A stretch of DNA of 64,000 bases from an uncultured archaeon (GCA_964534625.1 CAZHRF010000002.1:54723-118722); one strand, 5' to 3'; numbered from the stretch's first letter, positions 14,955-26,967 are shown. Translations and numbers: made by a program. The notes: generated from the letters alone by a model not told the origin.

Positions 14955-16064
14955 CTAAGCAGTTATTTTTGTTTGTTTTTTAAGTTCGCTATATATCCCA
15001 ACACCTATAGCAGTAATTACCATAGCTATGACAAGAATAATTGTTCCAATAGGCGGTTTTTGCCTAATAACCTCGAACTCGAAAATGGTCTGTTCAACTT
15101 GCAAAACATCTTCTAAAACCATTAATATTATATCATTTTGTTCATTAGTTGTATTTGTAGATTGAATGGCACTAAAATCTATATAAATTGGATCTCCTAA
15201 TGGTATGTCAGCAATTTCTATTGAAATATTTGCAGAGCTTGTTAGAATAGTAGTATTTGAAATATCGTAGGTGATGTTTGCAATCTCTAGTTGGTAAATA
15301 TCTGATTCTTTAGGGATCTGGATGTTTTTCATGTATAATTCATCCCCTTTTGTCCAGTTCAACATCTGGTTTTGAATTTGAGCTGAAAGACTTATTGTGC
15401 CTACTAGATAAACCTCTGGTTCGATTATAATTGAAAGGTTTTGGTCTTGATTTAATGCTCTAAGAGCGTTGATGGTATTTATGATTAGTATTAATTCGTC
15501 TGACATATCTTCGGTAGTTTCTATTTCTGGTAACTTGGCTAATTCTGTCGTATATCTCGTTGTTTTAACGTTAATGGGAACAGAAATATTTTCACCTACA
15601 AATGTTTCAAATTCTGAATAGGTTGTTTGTTTACTCTCTTCTTGAATGTAAAATGGTATTAATGTATCATTAAATGCTACAATTATTGAACCATTGAGTG
15701 ATAATGCGACTATACCACTCTCACTATTTAGCGTAAGGGCAAGTCTAGTGTTATTTTTATCAAATTGTTTATCGATAAAACCTGTTGCATTTAAAGGGGC
15801 ATCAATAGTAATATTTGAAGATAAGTATATACCCATACCAAGGGTAGCGTTCCCAAAAGAAAGGAATAAATTTCGCTGAAGAGATTTGTTTAAATCGATT
15901 TGTTGTTGAGACATCGTCCAATTTTCTTCTTCATCTATTTTTCCTTCATAAAATGAATCATTTAATGATAATGATGGTACAGTTACGAATAAGAGTGATA
16001 AATATAAAAACATAAAAAATATTGCAATTGTTCTTTTTTTTGCAGATTTATAGAATACTTTCAT
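14955..16064 (-). CDS. Exported hypothetical protein with C-terminal TM anchor
   Basis: Signal-like N-terminus, beta-rich body with many N-x-S/T sequons, C-terminal TM followed by basic residues. Confidence 0.8.
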   Translation of the reverse strand: MKVFYKSAKKRTIAIFFMFLYLSLLFVTVPSLSLNDSFYEGKIDEEENWTMSQQQIDLNKSLQRNLFLSFGNATLGMGIYLSSNITIDAPLNATGFIDKQFDKNNTRLALTLNSESGIVALSLNGSIIVAFNDTLIPFYIQEESKQTTYSEFETFVGENISVPINVKTTRYTTELAKLPEIETTEDMSDELILIINTINALRALNQDQNLSIIIEPEVYLVGTISLSAQIQNQMLNWTKGDELYMKNIQIPKESDIYQLEIANITYDISNTTILTSSANISIEIADIPLGDPIYIDFSAIQSTNTTNEQNDIILMVLEDVLQVEQTIFEFEVIRQKPPIGTIILVIAMVITAIGVGIYSELKKQTKITA

Positions 16065-16352: not shown

Positions 16353-17354
16353 ATGCCAAAAAATAACAAAGATAACGAAGATAATACAGAAGAAAGTGAA
16401 GAAAAAGCGGAAGTGTTGGCAGAAAAGCCCAAGAAACCCCGTAAAAAGAGGGTAAAAGGGGGTAAAATTACAAGGGATGATATTAAACTTTTACTTTTAG
16501 CAATCTGGAAAGTTATACTAGTTGTGCTCAGATTTATTTTTTCACCATTTATCTATACAGGAAAACTAATGGCAAGAACATATCGTTTCCTTAAAGATCG
16601 TGGTGATCACGAGCTAACAAATGAAGAGAAAGACTATCTGTCTTTGATACCCACAATGTATTTAATGCTTAGTATAAGCGTAACAATTGTCGTGGTGTTC
16701 TTTACTGTCTCATTTCTAGAAGAATTGTGGAGAGTTATAGCAAGTTTCAATATATGGGACGGTATTGTGTGGTTTTTCTTAGCAATTGGGAAAGGTATTG
16801 CATGGATTTTTAAAGGTATTTTTGGGGGGTTGGCGGCATTAGCCATGTTAATAGGTGAATTGCTATCAATAGATCCCTTCCTTGCATCATTTTTAGTATT
16901 ATTTATGATGGTAATTGTAGCGGGATTATTATTATTGTTATATCAAGCTCCATTTACACAAAAAGTAATAGCCGCTATAAGACGATTTGTAAAGTATATA
17001 GGAGAATTTCCTAAAAAAATCGGTTTATGGTTTAAGGAACTCCATGATAAATTCAAACTACTTGTTCTGAAATACATTATTGGAGAAAAACTGGTAGAAA
17101 CAAAAACTAAGAACTTCTTTTTTATAACGATTTTGTGGGTAGTAATTTTCACTATAATATCTTGGGTATTTTTTGCCGTCTATGCCATTTACACTTGGAT
17201 GGGTGTAGCATGGGATTGGCGTGATGCTTTAGGGTATATGGTATTTATCTTTCTCATCGAGTTTTTGATGGTCGGTATATTTGGAACTTGGTTCTTCCAT
17301 AGAATGCTCGGTATAGCTACTAAGCACTCTAATAGATACGCTATCAAAACCTAA
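16353..17354 (+). CDS. Hypothetical multi-pass membrane protein
   Basis: Charged N-terminus followed by several hydrophobic and amphipathic helices. Confidence 0.8.
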   Translation: MPKNNKDNEDNTEESEEKAEVLAEKPKKPRKKRVKGGKITRDDIKLLLLAIWKVILVVLRFIFSPFIYTGKLMARTYRFLKDRGDHELTNEEKDYLSLIPTMYLMLSISVTIVVVFFTVSFLEELWRVIASFNIWDGIVWFFLAIGKGIAWIFKGIFGGLAALAMLIGELLSIDPFLASFLVLFMMVIVAGLLLLLYQAPFTQKVIAAIRRFVKYIGEFPKKIGLWFKELHDKFKLLVLKYIIGEKLVETKTKNFFFITILWVVIFTIISWVFFAVYAIYTWMGVAWDWRDALGYMVFIFLIEFLMVGIFGTWFFHRMLGIATKHSNRYAIKT

Positions 17355-18613: not shown

Positions 18614-18768
18614 GTTCAGCTTTTTCTTGACTTTTTTTCTTTTTACTATAATTATAAAGGAAGAACAAAAGAGCGATTCTAGAGATTTTGATTTTTATAT
18701 GAGTGAATTTCAAACCTTCCATTAATTTTTCAATATAAGAGAAAAATAAAGAAGAGGAAAAAAAAGTA

Positions 18769-21700
18769 TTATCTTCTTCGAGGCGGTCTGCTACGATATT
18801 CATTATACATTGTGAGAATATTTAAAACCATATTCTCATTAACAGACATAATAAGTACTAGATCGCCTGATTTTGTCCTATGACCAATAAACCCTTGTTC
18901 TCCGCCATCACGAATTCCTATCATGACTGGTGCATCTGGGAAATCATTAACAACAATTGTTCCTCTATCTTTAGGCTTGTTGAGTATTTCCGTTAAATTA
19001 GGACTGAGTTTATCTTTATCTGTATATACCTCTAGTCTCCCAGTAAATGTTCCAATCCATTTTTCATCTGCCCAACTGAATTCAGGTGCAATGATATTTG
19101 CTTTGGTTTTTACATCTTTTAACATCCCCATCATAGATGCTGTTACTTCTTTTTCTCCTGAAATTATCCATGTGTCTTCTACGGGTTTGGGTTCAATTCC
19201 TCCACCCAAAGAGAGAACTTGTTTCATTAAAACCATTGATTCATCTATTGCATCTAGGGTTGAACCAATTCTGTTCGGGATGTTTTGGAGTTCTTTTTTA
19301 ACATTGGTTTCGAGTTTAGTTACCTCACCTTGTGATGTTTTAACAAACTGTTCTTTATGAGTCATTAATGAGTTAACATAGGTCTTTTGATCTTTTTTGA
19401 CTTCCGTAACCTCTTTTACCAACGTATCTAATTGCTCTGTTTCGGTTACATGCATCTCTTTTGCATATTCATGTGCTAATTTTTCGAACGATTTAAGATC
19501 TTTTGTTACATTAGTTTTAACTGTTCCAGTAGCATCCAGTAATGTATCTCTTGTTCCTTGAATATTTGTGACTAATGAACTTGAGTTGGTGTCTGATGCT
19601 GTTACGAGGCTTGATGTTTGATGTTGTACATTTAATCCAAAGTCGTTTATTGTTTTCTCAAATATTTCGTCTAGGCTTGTCTTTGTTTCTTCAAGATTTT
19701 GTGCTTTTGTTGAGTAAGTTCCATCTAAATCTTTCTTAACTTTCTCTATAACTTGATTTAAGATAGACTGAATTTGTTCTTGATATTGAATCAAATTTTC
19801 TTTTGTACTACTCATGTAAGCTTTGTGCTCTTCTTCGAAATTATTTGGATAGCTCTTAATTAGATTATCAAGTTCCGTCTCAATTTTTTCTGTCTCTTTA
19901 TCTAAAAGTGATGATTTTTCAGGTCCAATTGATATTTCTGCCATGATTTCTTCAGAATCAGTTGAGAAAACTTCCTTTTGTTCTTTGATAAGCGTGCTTA
20001 TATCCTGTGATACTCTCTCTGTATGCTGTGAGAACTGGTTTGACGCCTTATCAAGAGTGACAGAAATGTCTTCATCTAATGCTTTTTTAGCATTGTCTAG
20101 TTCATTTTCCAAGGATTCCATTGTGCTGTCCATTGACGAAGTTAAGTCTGTTACAAGAATTGAATGTTCATCAATTTTTGTTTTAATAGTTTCTTCAATC
20201 GATGCAGATACATTTTGTGTACTGTTCTTAATAATACCCAAAATTTGTTCTTTTTCTGTTTTCAAGCTATTTATACCTGTCTCAACCTTTTCTTTTATTT
20301 CTACCTTCTTAGCTTCAACCATTTCGTTAGTCTTAGCTTTACTCTGTGTAATCTTCCCGTCTATTTCTTGAGTGGCTTTTTCAATTGCTGAATTGAGAAG
20401 TGAAACCCCTTTCTTGTTTAGAGATTTATTGGCTTTTGAAAGTTCAGTTGATACTTCTGTCATATTACCAGAAACAGATTGATTGAATGTATCTATTTGT
20501 GTTTTAATTGTCTCTAAAAGCCCTTTTACCGCTTTTTGTTCACCTTTAATTAGTTTCGTATTTTCTTTTGAAACTAGATTAATGATCTCTTTTCCATCCT
20601 TATTTAATTCAGTGAAGAATGTTTTAATGTCTTCAGACTCGGCAAGACTTCCCACAGCTTCGATTACATTATTAGTTGAAGATTCTAATTGTGAATATGA
20701 TTCTTTTACCGCTTCTTCATCACGACCAATTAACTCTTTCATTTTTGTTGTGTGTGTTTCTTGTATCTGATTGAAAGATTCAGAATATTCATCATAAGCC
20801 TTGTTTATGTGCGTTTTCATACTTTTTAATGTGTGATTAAACGATTGATCAAGTTCGGTTTCTGATTTTGTAACAACTTTTCCTAATTCTTGTATAGCTG
20901 CATCCTTTTTTTCTGTCAAATCATCTAGGTGTTTATTCATATTTTGGAACACATTAGACGTAATAGCCTCTTTATTTGCCATTAGAGTACTTAATATACT
21001 TGTCATTTTTTGATTAGTTTCTCTTTCTATTAGTTGATACTCAGAACGGAGTATTTCATATTTGTCTCCAAATAGCTCTGCGTCTTCTTTTTCCATAACC
21101 GTTTTAAGGGCGTTCTGAACTTTTTTATCAGTATAATCAAAAGAATCAAAGACTGATAGAACATCATTCAACTTTTCTAGAAAACGCTTCATTTTGTTTT
21201 CTAACTCATTTAATCGGTCCATCGTTGCTTGATAACTCAATTCAACAGTATTTGGAACATCATCTCTGACATCTCTCCCTTCTTTTAGAAATTCATCTAT
21301 GATCAAAGAGTAATTCTGAACATATTCTTCTTCTTTTTCTCGTATTTTTTGTTTGATGTTTTCACTATTAGAAGAAATATTATTAGAAATATCAGAAATA
21401 ACGGATGTCTTTAGTTCAGTTAAGTTATTTTGGAAATTATTCTTAAAGTCTTCATGAATATTGTCAAAGTTCTCTAATTCGGTTTCAACAAGAGAGGTAT
21501 ATCCTTCAACTTTTTCTGCCAGCGCTTGAATATTTTGCTTTCCCATTTCATTGAAAGATGAAGAAGCATCCAATAATACTTTAAATAGGGCTGTTTGTTT
21601 TTCTTTTATCTTTTCATCCATTGCATTAGAATAAGAGGTGCTGATTTTTTCAATGCTAGAAATTGATTGATTTTGTTTTTCGATAATATCTGATTTGGCT

Positions 21701-23238
21701 TTCCCAAGGTTGGCTTTATTTTTATCAATAGATTGTGCTAGTGTCGAAGTAAAACTCTCTTGTAAGTCTAAAACTTTTTTCTCAGTTGTTTGCAACGTTT
21801 CGCTTGAAGCTTGTTTAAACGATTCTAGTCCTGTGTTCAAGTTTTCTATTATTCCTGAATTAAGATTATCTATATCGGTAAATACATTGGTAATATACGC
21901 AGTAATGAATTCTTCAAGAGTATTATTTAATTCCATTATATTATTACTAAGTGTTGTAACAGATTTATTCAAACCCTTCTCTAATTCATTTACTCCCTTA
22001 GTTAAACCCTCTTTTAGCATATCCAACAGATTATCACTATTCGTCTTGAAATCCTCTAAATAACCACTTAGGGATACTGTGAGTTCATTTTTCATTGACA
22101 CAGATTTTGTCTTAGTATCGGTAATTATACTTCCCAGACTCTTAACAGCCATGTCCTTTGTTCTATTTACAAGTTCTACAAAATTAGTTTCGTTTTCTTT
22201 GAGTCTTTCAACTGCTATATTTTTTGATTTTTCGATACTTGATTCAATTCTTGTGGTTGTCTGTATTTCAAGATTTTTTAATTCATCATTTAATGATGAA
22301 AGGATCTCTTTAACGTTTTGTTGATATTGCTTTATTTGTTGTTTATAATTTTCAACTGTCGTATTTATTGTCTGTTGTGCTAATGTTTTCGCTTCTTTCC
22401 CAACTCTCTCTGAATCTAACTTTAATTCATTAAATGTGTCATTTGTATTTTCTTGTATTAGATCTTTCTTTTCATTAAATAAAGTATTATATTCTTCTTG
22501 AAGTGTTTGAATCTTTGTTTGTATTTCATCTATCTTTTGTTTGATATCCGACAATTCCGAATGAACTCTTTCTTTATGCTTTTCTTCGATTTCAGTATAT
22601 GTACTTTCTATTTTCGTTTTAAAATTTTCATGAAAGGCTCCTATTTTTGTAATAGTGGTATCAAAGCTTTTCGTTGTATTTTCATCCATTCTTTGAATTG
22701 ACTTGTTGAAGGTTTCTATGTTAGTTGATAGCAGAGACGAACTTTCTTCCAATAATTTGTTTTTAATCTCCGTAATTCTTTGTTTATTTTCATCGATTGT
22801 AGATGAAATATTATCCAAGTAGCTCTTAGTATGCTTTTTAACTTCTGATGCGTGTTTATCTGAGTTTGTAATAATTGCATTATTGAGATTGTTCAAATTA
22901 CTGGAAAGTGTATCTATAGTTCTCTTCCATTCATCTAAAACTCCATCACTTGTTTTTCTCAGTTCATTCTTTAAACGCAATGAAACATCTTCAGTTAGCT
23001 TTATTTGAGGAGGGAGGGGAATATAATAGGGTGTCGCTTGTTGATTCTCTGCCTTGATCTCTTTTATATATCCACGCTCTATCAAACTCTTTAACGCGCC
23101 CATAATCACATCAGAAGATTGATCATAATAAACTTGGATTTGACCAAGTGTTCGGTAACCAAATTGAATAATTGTCGAATATACTTGTATTTCTTCTTCT
23201 TTTAAACCAAGATCTTTTAGTGTTGCATCTAATTCCAT
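18769..23238 (-). CDS. Giant TrmB-like protein: N-terminal wHTH, about 1270-aa hendecad coiled coil, C-terminal TrmB effector/PLD-like domain
   Basis: N-terminus LKDLGLKEEEIQVY...LKSLIERGYIKEI...YYIPLPP is TrmB-type wHTH. C-terminus TWIISGEKEV...ANIIAP...IGIRDG resembles the TrmB C-domain. The middle shows 11-residue periodicity. Confidence 0.8.
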   Translation of the reverse strand: MELDATLKDLGLKEEEIQVYSTIIQFGYRTLGQIQVYYDQSSDVIMGALKSLIERGYIKEIKAENQQATPYYIPLPPQIKLTEDVSLRLKNELRKTSDGVLDEWKRTIDTLSSNLNNLNNAIITNSDKHASEVKKHTKSYLDNISSTIDENKQRITEIKNKLLEESSSLLSTNIETFNKSIQRMDENTTKSFDTTITKIGAFHENFKTKIESTYTEIEEKHKERVHSELSDIKQKIDEIQTKIQTLQEEYNTLFNEKKDLIQENTNDTFNELKLDSERVGKEAKTLAQQTINTTVENYKQQIKQYQQNVKEILSSLNDELKNLEIQTTTRIESSIEKSKNIAVERLKENETNFVELVNRTKDMAVKSLGSIITDTKTKSVSMKNELTVSLSGYLEDFKTNSDNLLDMLKEGLTKGVNELEKGLNKSVTTLSNNIMELNNTLEEFITAYITNVFTDIDNLNSGIIENLNTGLESFKQASSETLQTTEKKVLDLQESFTSTLAQSIDKNKANLGKAKSDIIEKQNQSISSIEKISTSYSNAMDEKIKEKQTALFKVLLDASSSFNEMGKQNIQALAEKVEGYTSLVETELENFDNIHEDFKNNFQNNLTELKTSVISDISNNISSNSENIKQKIREKEEEYVQNYSLIIDEFLKEGRDVRDDVPNTVELSYQATMDRLNELENKMKRFLEKLNDVLSVFDSFDYTDKKVQNALKTVMEKEDAELFGDKYEILRSEYQLIERETNQKMTSILSTLMANKEAITSNVFQNMNKHLDDLTEKKDAAIQELGKVVTKSETELDQSFNHTLKSMKTHINKAYDEYSESFNQIQETHTTKMKELIGRDEEAVKESYSQLESSTNNVIEAVGSLAESEDIKTFFTELNKDGKEIINLVSKENTKLIKGEQKAVKGLLETIKTQIDTFNQSVSGNMTEVSTELSKANKSLNKKGVSLLNSAIEKATQEIDGKITQSKAKTNEMVEAKKVEIKEKVETGINSLKTEKEQILGIIKNSTQNVSASIEETIKTKIDEHSILVTDLTSSMDSTMESLENELDNAKKALDEDISVTLDKASNQFSQHTERVSQDISTLIKEQKEVFSTDSEEIMAEISIGPEKSSLLDKETEKIETELDNLIKSYPNNFEEEHKAYMSSTKENLIQYQEQIQSILNQVIEKVKKDLDGTYSTKAQNLEETKTSLDEIFEKTINDFGLNVQHQTSSLVTASDTNSSSLVTNIQGTRDTLLDATGTVKTNVTKDLKSFEKLAHEYAKEMHVTETEQLDTLVKEVTEVKKDQKTYVNSLMTHKEQFVKTSQGEVTKLETNVKKELQNIPNRIGSTLDAIDESMVLMKQVLSLGGGIEPKPVEDTWIISGEKEVTASMMGMLKDVKTKANIIAPEFSWADEKWIGTFTGRLEVYTDKDKLSPNLTEILNKPKDRGTIVVNDFPDAPVMIGIRDGGEQGFIGHRTKSGDLVLIMSVNENMVLNILTMYNEYRSRPPRRR

Positions 23239-23251
23239 TTTATAACCTCTT

Positions 23252-24691
23252 CTACTCTAATTCTTCAATTTTTTCAGTTAATTTGTCAATCTTATTAGTA
23301 ATATCATTCTTTGATTTTACAATATTCTTAGCATTTTCTTGTACGTCATTCGCTTCTTTTTCAAGTTCAGAAAGACCTGTAGACTGTGTTGAACCAATAG
23401 TATCTTTTGCTTGTCCAATGTCATTTTTAATCTGCTTGACTGAAAGTTCTTTAGTTTTTGTTATGTCTTTGTTAATCGATTGTTGTGTATTATTTATTTC
23501 TTCTAGAAGTCTTTCATCGATTTGGGTTAAATTGTTATCAATTGTAGTAGTCTTGTCTTCACTCTGTTGTTTAAATTGTTCTTTATTTTGATCAATTGAG
23601 GTAAGTATATTTTTTACTTCTTTCTGAACCCGTTTTTGTTCTTCATTTATTGTACTTTTAACTTCATCCTTCATTTTTTCTGATTGTTCTTCGAAACTCT
23701 TTAAAGTTGTATTAAAATCTGTTTCTAACCCACTTTCAATCTCTTTAAGTTCTATTTCATTTGCTGTTAAAGCATCTTGAGTTATCTCATCAAAAAGATT
23801 GAACATAGAGTTTTTTTCTTCATCAAAATTATTAAGAATGACAGAATTTATATCCAGCATACCTGTTTCGTATTCAGCTAAGGTTTCTTGTATCTTAGAT
23901 ATTTCATTGATGAGATATTTATCCATTGTTGTATTAATATCTGATAACTCACTTTGGATTCTTTGTACAGCATTAGAAACCATTAGTTGTAACTCATCCT
24001 TTATTTTACCAAAACTATCAAAAACGGCTTCCATGTTATTTGTGAGTTTGTCACGATATTCAGAACGAAGGTGATCAATAGACTTGTCGATTAAATCTTC
24101 ATTAACTTGCATACTTTTGTCAAGCTGATCACGTAATTTTTGGGTATTAGTTTGCATAGTTTCAACATTAGTTTCTCGTCTGTCTTTTATAGAACCTATA
24201 GTACCATCAATCGTTTTCCTTAATGCATTGACTTGTTTATTTGCAAATAATTCAAACTTTTGGCTATGTGTCCCAAGTGTCTTCACTATCCTTTCATCAA
24301 AGGATTTAGATACATTCGAGAAGTCCTTACTACCTGTATTCAATAAATCAATATATTCGTGTTGCAATTCTTGGAGTTTATCCTTAATTGATTTGATCTC
24401 TTTGTTTATGGTACCCTTATTCTTCTCCGACCACGAATTGGTTTGTTCAATCGCTGTCTCTGAAATTTTATTGATTTGGGTTTTGGCTTTATTTTCTACT
24501 TCTGTTTGAATAGTCGTGACTTTATTTTCCATCTCAATAAATTTTGATTGAATAAGGTTTGACATTTCTTTATAATGCAGTTCTAAGGACTGCAAATTTC
24601 CTAAAGATTCTTTAAAAATGGTTAATTCGCTTCCTATCTCTTCAAGTTTCTTTTTTGCTTTTTCTATATCCTTGGCAATTTTTTCTGACAT
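23252..24691 (-). CDS. All-helical hendecad coiled-coil protein (479 aa)
   Basis: No prolines and continuous 11-residue amphipathic repeats. GGTGA SD precedes the start. Ends 13 bp before the giant gene. Confidence 0.85.
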   Translation of the reverse strand: MSEKIAKDIEKAKKKLEEIGSELTIFKESLGNLQSLELHYKEMSNLIQSKFIEMENKVTTIQTEVENKAKTQINKISETAIEQTNSWSEKNKGTINKEIKSIKDKLQELQHEYIDLLNTGSKDFSNVSKSFDERIVKTLGTHSQKFELFANKQVNALRKTIDGTIGSIKDRRETNVETMQTNTQKLRDQLDKSMQVNEDLIDKSIDHLRSEYRDKLTNNMEAVFDSFGKIKDELQLMVSNAVQRIQSELSDINTTMDKYLINEISKIQETLAEYETGMLDINSVILNNFDEEKNSMFNLFDEITQDALTANEIELKEIESGLETDFNTTLKSFEEQSEKMKDEVKSTINEEQKRVQKEVKNILTSIDQNKEQFKQQSEDKTTTIDNNLTQIDERLLEEINNTQQSINKDITKTKELSVKQIKNDIGQAKDTIGSTQSTGLSELEKEANDVQENAKNIVKSKNDITNKIDKLTEKIEELE

Positions 24692-24702
24692 TTTTTTTCA
24701 CC

Positions 24703-26472
24703 TTAAAAATCTAATTCTTTCTCTAAATCCAAATCTTCGATTGAAACTTTTTCAACTTTATCTGGTTCTATCTCAGGTAATGAATCTATTGCTATTTGTT
24801 CTTTTTGATATTTGGTTGACTGGAAGTATTCATGGTGAACTGGATGTTCTTTAAACACTTTCATTGTCTTTTGTCTAATTTTTTCGAATTGATTGCTATC
24901 ACCAATCGCTTTATAACAATCGATACAAGATTTATAATATGCTCGGATGGCATATCCCGATTTTTTAACGTTTAAAGAGGAGGCTAGTTTTTCAAATTGA
25001 TCAGCTGCTCTCCTATATGATCTTTCTGCTTTTGTTTCTTCATCCACATCAGCATAATATTTTGCCGATTTTACATATAATTTAGCAGCAAATTTATAGT
25101 TTTTTTCTTCAAAGTCTCTAGCTATTTCCTCACATGTATTTCCTGCTTGATCATAATCATTTACACTTTCTAATTTCTCAGCATTCAGTAAGGTAAGTTT
25201 GTATGCTTTATAGAACATTTCATTAGAAATGCATAAAGAAATAATATGATGTAGTTTCTTAGCTACAGCAAAATAGCATAGTGGGTCTTTAACTTTCTTT
25301 ATATAATCGCTTAATAATTCTATCTCAGTATTACTTGGAGCAATCTTGTTTTCTAAGTTTGCTATTATCTTATTGATACTGTGAATAAGTGTGGGAAGTG
25401 GAATGTAAAGTTTTGATCGTAGGTTAATTGAATTTAATAAGGCGTTGTTTTGGAGTCTAGCAAAAGAATCACCAATCCATAAGATGTCTTTTTCCTTAAG
25501 TTCGTTTACTCCCTCTTTAGAAGTGTTTTTGATTAAACTTTTTAAGGGAAATAAGTTTTCATTATAAGTTGCTATCTCCTCCAAAACTTCCTCTTCTTTA
25601 TCTGTCATATCCATTAATTTAGATAAATTACGTTCAACAAAGTCATTAATAGTAAGTCCTTTATCAACAAATCCTATGCCTAACATTAAATCAAAATGGG
25701 TCTTTGTACTATTAGTGATTATATCTAAAAGACCTTTATTTACTAACATGGGCGCTTTTCTTCTTAAAAATATCTCTGCTTCAGAGGATGACAATGCTTC
25801 AATTTTTAAGATCTCAGAATTATTTGTTAAATAAGAATTGTAATCAAATTCGGGTAAATATTGTTCTGAAAATGCACTCGTCACTAGTATATTAAGTTCT
25901 TTTTTACTAATTTCATGTATAATTTGTGCAAATATAGGATAAAATTGATTCAAATTTAGAAGCTTAAAAGTCTCAAGATTGTCTATCGTAAAATAGAGTT
26001 TAGTTTTTGTTTCCTCAAGTTTTTCGTTGATTTTTTCTAGTTTTTTCATGAATTCTGATGTATAAAAATCTGCAAAACTTATTGAATCCGGTAATTTTGG
26101 ATTGTCAAGGAGGCTAGGTAAATCATCACCTGGCTTTTTTTTGCGGAGTTTTTCAAAGAAACCTCTCCATTCTGGAGCAAGCTCATCAGCCTTATTTAAC
26201 CACAACTTAAAAAAATCCGCCATTTTTTGTTTTTCAGGAAGTAATTCAAAGTAAAACCTCTCTTCTTTCCTTCCAATGATGGATGAATTAAATTTATGCA
26301 ATAAGGAAGATTTACCTGTTCCAGCATCTCCAAGGACTAATAAACATCTTTTAGGCGTTTCTTTTAGCTTAAAAGCATTCTTAAATTTTTCAAAACGGTT
26401 AACTATATCAATAAAACCAATAAACTCTTCTGGTGTTGCTGCATATAGAAATTGATTTTGTAACTGTTCCAT
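24703..26472 (-). CDS. STAND-like P-loop NTPase with C-terminal TPR/alpha-SNAP-like repeats
   Basis: Walker A GDAGTGKS, Walker B LYFTIDNLE, helical/wHTH middle, C-terminal Ala/Tyr-rich helical repeats (AAKLYVKSAKYY, AERSYRRAADQFEKLA). Confidence 0.75.
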   Translation of the reverse strand: MEQLQNQFLYAATPEEFIGFIDIVNRFEKFKNAFKLKETPKRCLLVLGDAGTGKSSLLHKFNSSIIGRKEERFYFELLPEKQKMADFFKLWLNKADELAPEWRGFFEKLRKKKPGDDLPSLLDNPKLPDSISFADFYTSEFMKKLEKINEKLEETKTKLYFTIDNLETFKLLNLNQFYPIFAQIIHEISKKELNILVTSAFSEQYLPEFDYNSYLTNNSEILKIEALSSSEAEIFLRRKAPMLVNKGLLDIITNSTKTHFDLMLGIGFVDKGLTINDFVERNLSKLMDMTDKEEEVLEEIATYNENLFPLKSLIKNTSKEGVNELKEKDILWIGDSFARLQNNALLNSINLRSKLYIPLPTLIHSINKIIANLENKIAPSNTEIELLSDYIKKVKDPLCYFAVAKKLHHIISLCISNEMFYKAYKLTLLNAEKLESVNDYDQAGNTCEEIARDFEEKNYKFAAKLYVKSAKYYADVDEETKAERSYRRAADQFEKLASSLNVKKSGYAIRAYYKSCIDCYKAIGDSNQFEKIRQKTMKVFKEHPVHHEYFQSTKYQKEQIAIDSLPEIEPDKVEKVSIEDLDLEKELDF

Positions 26473-26685
26473 TGGTATCCCTACTTTCTTCTCTTCTTTT
26501 TATTTCATTACACTAGTTAATAAAATATGCGAATGTATCGCATGAAATAACTTAGACTCATGAGTTATTAATCTATTTGCCTATTTTATTGATTCTTCCT
26601 GAATTATGGTTGAAATTCTACTGAAAGAATAATTATTAACATATAATAATAATGTTTTATCATTGAAAAATATTATCCTTTTAGT

Positions 26686-26795
26686 TAGTACTTCCGAAAT
26701 AGTGTTCTACTGCTATTCTTTCAGTAACCAAATAAAGCAAAGATTCGTTTTAAATCGATAAAGTCTTTAATCTTTATTTTAATTCGGAAGTACTA
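26686..26795. mobile_element. MITE-like element, copy 1 (perfect 13-bp TIR)
   Basis: tagtacttccgaa (26686-26698) and ttcggaagtacta (26783-26795). Confidence 0.65.
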
Positions 26796-26967
26796 TTTAG
26801 TATAATAACTGGACAAAAAAAGGAATTTTATCTTTAAATAATATCTAAAATTCTTCAATAACTGTTTAATAATTTTGAACGCTTATTCATATACAAAGAT
26901 AAAAATAATCAGTTGCTTTACATGACATAGGTTAAGCAGTCACTAATTTAAAGCCACGGTGTAAATA

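Follow-up and report, generated by a model that had tools for sequence, protein, structure and literature searches.

The subject of this analysis is an operon of three genes on the minus strand (positions 18,769 to 26,472) of a 64,000-nucleotide stretch of DNA, here called the window (GCA_964534625.1, CAZHRF010000002.1:54723-118722), from an uncultured archaeon that is placed, by the source names of close homologues, in the Heimdallarchaeaceae, within the Heimdall group of the Asgard archaea. The third gene (gene 3) is predicted to encode a complete TrmBL2-type protein, consisting of a winged helix-turn-helix (wHTH) and a noncatalytic phospholipase D (PLD)-like domain, that bears an insert of ~1,250 residues of hendecad helix, and the two halves of this insert, which are of equal length, appear to run antiparallel and to pair with each other around a conserved apex near residue 713. 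It is encoded with a second hendecad protein (gene 2) and with a STAND-type nucleotide switch (gene 1). We propose that the operon specifies a nucleotide-gated, probably DNA-anchored scaffold or tether; taken whole, with the anatomy of the proteins included, we hold this statement to be evenly balanced between right and wrong. The anatomy of the three proteins is put forward with high confidence, and their function as a nucleotide-gated, probably DNA-anchored scaffold or tether is put forward tentatively. The three genes are as follows.

24703-26472, minus strand: gene 1, 589 amino acids (aa)
23252-24691, minus strand: gene 2, 479 aa, a hendecad coiled-coil protein with a conserved center at residues 201 to 280 (window 23852-24091) (periodicity, register, alignment)
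18769-23238, minus strand: gene 3, 1489 aa

An earlier note, made by reading this DNA without database searches, had described three co-oriented genes with gaps of 11 and 13 bp, Shine-Dalgarno (SD)-like motifs, and long flanking gaps, and the three open reading frames (ORFs) and their gaps were confirmed at the positions it gave. The genes are tightly coupled: the gap of 11 nucleotides (nt) between genes 1 and 2 has GGTGAAAAAAA ahead of the gene 2 ATG, and the gap of 13 nt between genes 2 and 3 has AAGAGGTTATAAA ahead of the gene 3 ATG, in both cases with an SD-like purine run. No transmembrane (TM)-like segments were found in the proteins of gene 1, gene 2, or gene 3. The parts of gene 3 were delimited as follows, each with the evidence on which it was called.

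22984..23238, minus strand: gene 3 residues 1 to 85, TrmB-type wHTH with invariant R29, T30, G32, Q33, and Y37 (Pfam PF01978, profile against 3qph, alignment)
21274..22983, minus strand: gene 3 residues 86 to 655, N-terminal arm, hendecad helix of nearly constant register (periodicity)
20959..21273, minus strand: gene 3 residues 656 to 760, apex, hendecad signal lost, mirror point at ~713 (periodicity, conservation, insertions/deletions [indels])
19210..20958, minus strand: gene 3 residues 761 to 1343, C-terminal arm, hendecad helix made up of three or four register blocks and broken near 837 to 860 and 1079 to 1101 (periodicity)
18772..19209, minus strand: gene 3 residues 1344 to 1489, PLD-like domain of the TrmBL2/TrmB type with invariant R-D-x-x-E and no HKD (AlphaFold2 [AF2], Foldseek, alignment)

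The N terminus of gene 3 clears the cutoff of Pfam PF01978 (27.4 versus 25.6 bits), and a profile built from its orthologues matches TrmB 3qph at an E value of 1.7e-8. The C-terminal domain was identified by the fold search alone, as nothing meaningful was returned by sequence from a comparison of its profile with Protein Data Bank sequences or from Pfam on 17 members. In the AF2 model of this domain, built from 17 orthologues, the predicted local distance difference test (pLDDT) was 79 overall and >87 within the domain, and the top eight Foldseek matches were all TrmBL2 chains (E 4.8e-9 to 2.7e-7, with 5bqt the best), followed by TrmB (2f5t, E 1.7e-6) and then by PLD-fold nucleases. No conserved His or Lys in the arrangement of the catalytic HxK(x)4D motif was present in the alignment of the C-terminal domain. 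The wHTH and rod that the earlier note had seen in gene 3 therefore stand, the wHTH now above its cutoff, but the C-terminal PLD-like half of the TrmB family had been missed. Both end domains are the best-conserved parts of gene 3. The net charge is close to zero in the wHTH (-4 to +3) and strongly negative in the rod (-44 to -98), and 16 of the 17 prolines of gene 3 fall outside the arm repeats. Within the wHTH, the invariant R29, T30, and Q33 fall where the first HTH helix begins, and the helix aligned with the recognition helix varies, a pattern that would fit backbone or nonspecific DNA contacts better than the reading of a sequence.

The pairing of the arms themselves we infer from paired indels, from mirror conservation, and from a central break. 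Near the middle of the protein (~650 to 730 in the window protein), the hendecad signal collapses and a Pro is conserved in all 19 orthologues examined. Two gene 3 proteins from one genus (L027 and L028; 1474 and 1256 aa, 55% identical) differ in length by just two indels, at residues 444 to 549 (106 aa) and 825 to 928 (104 aa), which are mirror images of each other about residue ~687; in this genus gene 3 occurs in two length classes only, of ~1257 to 1269 and ~1474 to 1475 aa. (A frame of 1375 aa in genome G029, considered as an intermediate length, was rejected because it ends at the end of its contig.) When the conservation of the N-terminal half was compared with that of the reversed C-terminal half, a sharp correlation peak was found at residue 711 (r 0.72), and with gap-free identity in the long forms only, the mirror peak was at residue 713 (r 0.51, versus no more than 0.19 away from the center). 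Residue 714 lies halfway between the wHTH, which ends at ~85, and the C-terminal domain, which starts at ~1343. A parallel coiled coil predicts none of these features. The simplest form is probably a fold-back hairpin, with ~570 to 590 residues and a length of ~85 to 90 nm per arm, because the two head domains then stay side by side as in ordinary TrmBL2 or in the ancestor.

The apex holds a conserved R-[DE]-x-[VLIT]-P motif at ~658 to 662 and, in most orthologues, a basic loop, K-x2-FG-x-K-[DEK], at ~713 to 722 that is less clear in the window protein. In the C-terminal arm the register shifts near residues 837 to 860 and 1079 to 1101 (window 19930-20730), and the N-terminal arm has weak spots near the mirror positions, at ~507 to 529 and ~221 to 265 (window 21650-22580); together these may be elbows of the folded arm. 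The same genome also encodes a gene 3 paralogue of 753 aa (contig C83, L057:3830-6091, minus strand), in which a TrmB-like wHTH is followed by a hendecad helix of ~500 residues and by the PLD-like C-terminal domain of gene 3 (profile E 4.8e-14); no gene 1 homologue adjoins it, and it is one of a large Asgard family of TrmB-headed rods.

Gene 2 is without Pro and without Cys, and from its periodicity it is predicted to be a single continuous hendecad helix of ~455 residues, ~68 nm long if extended. Its hydrophobicity spectrum has one peak, at 3.66 residues (power 430, versus a maximum of 119 in shuffled sequences), and the phase of the signal stays within ~35 degrees over residues 23 to 479, so that the hendecad register is unbroken; the core follows the a/d/e/h pattern of hendecad coiled coils. 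At a period of 3.667 the power was 421 for gene 2 and 807 for residues 90 to 1330 of gene 3 (shuffled sequences, <140), and at a period of 3.5 it was about nil in both, which bears out the 11-residue periodicity common to genes 2 and 3 in the earlier note. The center of gene 2 (residues 201 to 280) is its best-conserved part, and the net charge is -19 to -35. Mirror-symmetric indels were seen in one pair of gene 2 orthologues (L039 versus L030, centered at ~235) and not in others, with identity of only 11 to 17% outside the family. Five profiles of gene 2 segments matched gene 3, but the matches were spread over the two arms and singled out neither a docking site nor a motif common to both proteins. 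The complex predicted for full-length gene 2 and residues 340 to 589 of gene 1 scored 0.11, where the mark is 0.32, and speaks neither for nor against binding. Weak NCBIfam SMC matches of the coiled-coil type were found on gene 2 only.

Gene 1 is predicted, from its alignment and model, to be an effector-less P-loop nucleotide switch of the STAND/Orc1-Cdc6 type, with a winged helix and a tetratricopeptide repeat (TPR)-like solenoid, in the following order.

25618..26472, minus strand: gene 1 residues 1 to 285, P-loop domain and helical domain; Walker A G48-S56, Walker B D164, RR237-238 (alignment, AF2 model, Foldseek, VIA)
25408..25617, minus strand: gene 1 residues 286 to 355, winged helix of the STAND/Orc1-Cdc6 core (secondary structure of the model; the aligned ranges of MalT, Cdc6, and NLR reach ~355)
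24805..25407, minus strand: gene 1 residues 356 to 556, TPR-like alpha-solenoid, sensor or arm (alignment, AF2 model, VIA)
24706..24804, minus strand: gene 1 residues 557 to 589, disordered acidic tail with a LEKELDF motif at its end (pLDDT 30 to 42; alignment)

Among 24 aligned orthologues, GxxGxGK[ST] (G48-S56) and Asp164 of Walker B show little or no variation, the RR pair at 237 and 238 is nearly invariant, and the residue following the Walker B Asp is variable (N, D, E, or T); in the solenoid, R510 and H546 are invariant and F550 nearly so. The AF2 model (pLDDT 85) comprises the P-loop, the helical domain, the winged helix, the solenoid, and the disordered tail. The Pfam P-loop matches of gene 1 were all below threshold (AAA_16, 29.2 versus 32.6; ATPase_2; NACHT), and its orthologue at L030 clears the AAA_16 cutoff (35.1 versus 32.6). 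By Foldseek the top match was the STAND-TPR protein PH0952 (6mfv; E 5.6e-10, aligned to residue 554), with further matches to Avs3, Avs5, PAB2304, ORC/Cdc6, SAMD9, NOD2, and MalT, and by VIA-align MalT and Cdc6 both reached a Z value of 15.9, MalT over residues 11 to 355. No fused effector domain is present in gene 1, which has ~40 residues before the P-loop and a disordered tail of 33 residues as its C terminus; the intact Walker A and B and the missing N-terminal effector of the earlier note were in this way found again.

That note had also seen TPR/alpha-SNAP-like repeats in gene 1, of which the TPR-like solenoid holds good and the likeness to SNAP is indistinguishable from a generic TPR match: with the solenoid alone, VIA gave Z values of 13.1 for LGN TPR, 12.8 for Pins, and 12.4 for gamma-SNAP (2ifu), tied with TPR proteins and designed repeats and in the range of generic helical repeats, and Pfam SNAP (PF14938) did not match gene 1 at E values up to 1. 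As the second Walker B residue is variable, the NTPase looks like a slow STAND switch or hub and not like the loader or remodeling motor that the note had supposed. Among the aligned sequences, only gene 1 proteins of the Heimdallarchaeaceae have the acidic disordered linker with a LEKELDF-type motif, and in most members of this family a basic Y-R-S-R-x-P tail (window 18772-18800) closes gene 3; the two tails may be a family-specific docking pair.

Genes 1 and 2 were counted in 30 genomes of the same family, and the gene 1 profile and the gene 3 C-terminal domain in 301 Asgard genomes. Each of the 30 genomes of the family has genes 1 and 2, and 28 of them have the gene 3 C-terminal domain, always in single copy. 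The identity of gene 1 is 45 to 50% within the family and 23 to 27% in three other families of the order, most genomes of which hold all three genes. At 18 loci examined in four families, genes 1 to 3 lie next to one another, -8 to +17 nt apart, and the triplet supposed by the earlier note is conserved in related Asgard genomes. The gene 1 profile matches 78 of the 301 genomes, and the triplet or a gene pair was found in seven further Asgard families; the full triplet is present in five further families. The gene 3-type C-terminal domain is present in 242 of the 301, often in 2 to 5 copies, in frames of 460 to 2090 aa. In two families (L050, 8523-13792; L051, 4587-9849) the module has no gene 2, genes 1 and 3 are direct neighbors, and gene 1 is longer (627 to 636 aa); in one family (L045:62-14198) genes 1 and 2 are adjacent and a gene 3-type gene lies ~10 kb off on the other strand.

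Neighbors in the ESM Atlas were unannotated, TrmB-bearing clusters from the same phylum, and no close relative of gene 1 was found on viral contigs. The operon proteins are hypothetical in public records, as is the gene 1 orthologue in the annotation of a related closed genome, that of Candidatus Heimdallarchaeum aukensis. No literature description of the three-gene system was found, in agreement with the earlier note, which had recognized no named system of this composition; one preprint merely lists "TrmBL" among chromatin families. The locus is a single-copy operon that looks vertically inherited, and the module to which it belongs is specific to the Asgard archaea.

In the function that we propose, the heads of gene 3 would dimerize or tetramerize and, like TrmBL2, bind DNA of any sequence, and with such binding the arms would project from the nucleoid. 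Upon ATP binding and a cue at the solenoid, the STAND protein of gene 1 would multimerize into a hub and so gather rods bound to the solenoid, or release them; the rod elements concerned would be gene 2, the apex or head of gene 3, or both. The module would accordingly serve as a nucleotide-gated structural scaffold, spacer, or tether and would be neither an immune sensor nor an ordinary transcription factor. Because gene 1, an effector-less STAND, is encoded together with two rod proteins, these are likely to be its clients. PMC6468293 describes STANDs as closed, ADP-bound monomers that become ATP-bound multimeric hubs once the sensor is engaged or induced, and TrmBL2 coats DNA nonspecifically as tetramers and forms stiff DNA filaments (PMC4877046).

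Several points weigh against this proposal. The helix aligned with the TrmB recognition helix is the least-conserved part of the wHTH and is variable and rather acidic, and given the same pattern, together with the acidic helix and rod, the wHTH could be one that no longer binds DNA; DNA binding by the gene 3 head is a prediction, as is physical association of the three proteins. TrmB-headed rods exist without the gene 1 ATPase (242 versus 78 of the 301 genomes). An antiparallel homodimer of ~180 nm, with a mixed head at each end, would have the same mirror symmetry as the hairpin.

TrmB and TrmBL2 have the domain order HTH, dimerization helix, and C-terminal domain, and TrmBL2 is without the sugar-binding subdomain of TrmB (PMC4877046). 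Gene 3 has the same order of extended wHTH, helix, and PLD-like C-terminal domain as the Thermococcales proteins TrmBL2 (PF0496/TK0471; 5bqt, 5bpd, 5bpi, and 5box) and TrmB (3qph and 2f5t), and, like TrmBL2, it does not have the extra sugar-binding subdomain. However, where TrmB and TrmBL2 have one dimerization helix of ~30 residues, gene 3 has ~1,250 residues of hendecad helix with an apex; in addition, its equivalent of the recognition helix is variable and acidic, and it stands in an operon with a STAND ATPase. Gene 1 has the P-loop, helical domain, winged helix, and helical-repeat sensor of the STANDs with TPR sensors PH0952 (6mfv) and MalT (8bob), and its other relatives by fold are the archaeal ATPases PAB2304 (2qen) and SSO1545 (2fna) and Orc1/Cdc6; it differs from those STANDs in having no effector at either end, a varying second Walker B acidic residue, and the acidic LEKELDF tail.

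The arms of SMC, Rad50, and MukB are long antiparallel intramolecular coiled coils with length-matched halves, a hinge or apex at the midpoint, and a DNA-associated head. Gene 3, with its putative pairing, has the same length-matching signature and a central break with a conserved Pro. Whereas the SMC-type head is an ABC ATPase made from both termini, the gene 3 head is a pair of TrmBL2-type wHTH and PLD-like domain; its periodicity is hendecad, versus heptad in SMC-type arms, and ATPase activity would reside in another protein, the STAND of gene 1. No partner resembling a kleisin was recognized. Scy and FilP of Streptomyces are very long, hendecad-based, nonheptad coiled-coil rods that build scaffolds (PMC9858780, PMC6599971); they share the type of rod with genes 2 and 3 but are bacterial and are without TrmB-type ends, evidence of folding back, or a STAND partner. 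The parts of the operon all come from known fold families (STAND, hendecad coiled coil, and TrmB/TrmBL2), and we found no system in the literature that combines them, in particular none in which a TrmBL2-type protein has become a long length-matched arm. The layout is SMC-like, except that the head is not an ATPase and the STAND ATPase is a protein of its own.

Eukaryotes have no closer known relatives than the Asgard archaea, about whose organization of cell interior and chromosome little is known. The operon is kept throughout one family, in all genomes searched, and recurs across the phylum. In gene 3, a small DNA-binding regulator would have become a structural element of ~90 nm by the insertion of a length-matched helical hairpin, a similar architecture having been reached by SMC-type proteins with a different head, and this rod element is paired with a STAND switch that is without an effector of its own. 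These are defined, expressible proteins with which to probe whether Asgard archaea have DNA-anchored scaffolds. We think it improbable, as a specific picture, that the module is an Asgard-specific, nucleotide-gated tether of fixed length, with TrmBL2-like heads on the chromosome, arms of ~90 nm reaching the envelope, the cytoskeleton, or other DNA, and a STAND as its switch. If true, it would give the closest relatives of eukaryotes a prokaryotic means to space or anchor their nucleoid, and TrmB-headed rods of discrete lengths (460 to 2090 aa) would be a set of molecular rulers.

The earlier note had read the operon as a rod or filament in which genes 2 and 3 co-assemble lengthwise as a DNA-tethered hetero-oligomer, loaded or remodeled by the NTPase through a SNAP-like grip. 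The tight translational coupling of genes 1 to 3 at the 18 loci, the common type of hendecad repeat with the diffuse matches of gene 2 segment profiles to the gene 3 arms, and the alignment of the gene 1 solenoid to gamma-SNAP (Z 12.4) are consistent with such a rod. However, the halves of gene 3 are length-matched to each other by paired indels while gene 2 stays at 485 to 487 aa beside the 1256- and 1474-aa forms; across lineages the lengths of gene 2 (425 to 773 aa) and gene 3 (1110 to 1812 aa) are unrelated, and there are modules without gene 2 (L050 and L051) or with a displaced gene 3 (L045). Moreover, generic TPR proteins match the solenoid as well as SNAP does, and a fast motor is hard to reconcile with a second Walker B acidic residue that is not conserved. 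With gene 3 apparently pairing with itself, no length covariation, and modules that dispense with gene 2, we consider the hetero-oligomeric rod unlikely. We rate somewhat lower the chance that gene 3 is a sequence-specific repressor or activator of the TrmB type, with the arm as sensor or spacer and a MalT-like STAND as coregulator. It has kept both TrmB-family end domains, the best-conserved parts of the protein, and MalT, a STAND transcription factor, is among the best fold matches of gene 1. Against this, the equivalent of the recognition helix is the least-conserved element of the wHTH, where conservation would be expected of a sequence-specific protein with a conserved target, gene 1 has no DNA-binding effector domain, an arm of 1,250 residues with conserved length-matched halves would be costly and has no known precedent among regulators, and there are no conserved neighboring genes to regulate.

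The rods might instead be amphipathic proteins that bind lipid or membrane like exchangeable apolipoproteins or perilipins, their 11-mer helices opening onto a vesicle, droplet, or protrusion. Lipid-binding helices do use an 11-residue amphipathic period, and gene 3 matches Pfam Apolipoprotein (PF01442) at 102.8 bits versus a cutoff of 90, with weaker matches on gene 2 and on orthologues. Exchangeable apolipoproteins have 11/22-residue amphipathic repeats in common with gene 3; they are, however, secreted and Pro-punctuated, whereas gene 3 is acidic, belongs to an archaeal cytoplasmic context, and has no signal peptide or hydrophobic N terminus, and the PF01442 match most likely reflects the type of repeat and not descent. 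Further evidence speaks against lipid binding: both rods are strongly acidic (gene 3, -44 to -98; gene 2, -19 to -35) and without a TM segment or signal peptide, the hydrophobic stripe is a narrow a/d/e/h coiled-coil seam, the apolipoprotein-type Pro between 22-mers is absent (gene 2 is Pro-free, and 16 of the 17 gene 3 Pro lie outside the arm repeats), and the paired indels point to helix-helix pairing. We regard this explanation as quite improbable. Least credible of all, and in our judgment very improbable, is a role in antiviral defense (a defense module was among the possible roles listed in the earlier note), with gene 1 as an Avs-like STAND sensor of a viral protein and the rods as effectors or as a transmission element like the ZorA tail. 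Gene 1 does have Foldseek matches to Avs3 and Avs5 and a weak PDC-S39 match on its solenoid, and a PADLOC search, which that note had named as a check, returned ZorA-model matches for genes 2 and 3 with E values down to 1.7e-21. These matches, however, span the coiled-coil tail of the models only; ZorA of Zorya has a long coiled-coil tail like genes 2 and 3, but here there is no MotA/ExbB membrane domain, no ZorB, and no TM segment. Nor is there a nuclease, protease, SIR2, or TIR effector, the PLD-like domain is without HKD, the module is single-copy, looks vertical, and is present in 30/30 genomes of the family, its identity declines with taxonomic distance (from 45 to 50% to 23 to 27%), and its neighbors are GAPDH, M24 peptidases, and DnaJ/DnaK.

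The surroundings of the operon in the window were read as follows.

26473..26967, minus strand: AT-rich upstream spacer of 495 bp, common to the operon and a divergent M24 peptidase gene
18741..18768, minus strand: T-rich tract immediately 3' of the gene 3 stop codon (sequence read)

The 495-bp spacer is presumed to be the promoter region of the operon, and the T-rich tract after gene 3, which opens a spacer of 155 bp with oligo-T, is likely an archaeal terminator. The sequencing runs on record are DNA runs of a microbial-mat study, which may be the source. The surrounding genes in the window are housekeeping genes, namely type-I GAPDH, two M24 peptidases, DnaJ, DnaK, an aminotransferase, and an ABC ATPase. 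Two further ORFs of the window, at 14955-16064 (minus strand, 369 aa) and 16353-17354 (plus strand, 333 aa), lie between the aminotransferase and GAPDH genes and matched no Pfam family at E values up to 0.001. Elsewhere the genes flanking the triplet are metabolic and differ by lineage (DHDPS, MFS, AFOR, PALP, RagA-like, and others), with no conserved neighbor hinting at function across the lineages examined. In two other families of the order, same-strand genes stand upstream of the triplet (L030:13316-17345, L039:11772-16728, and L035:8519-13526); these genes, which are absent upstream of the operon in the window, encode a DUF58-like protein (at two of the three loci, the third not being resolved), a polytopic membrane protein of ~745 aa, and a CARDB surface protein with a signal peptide, a Gly run, and a C-terminal anchor.

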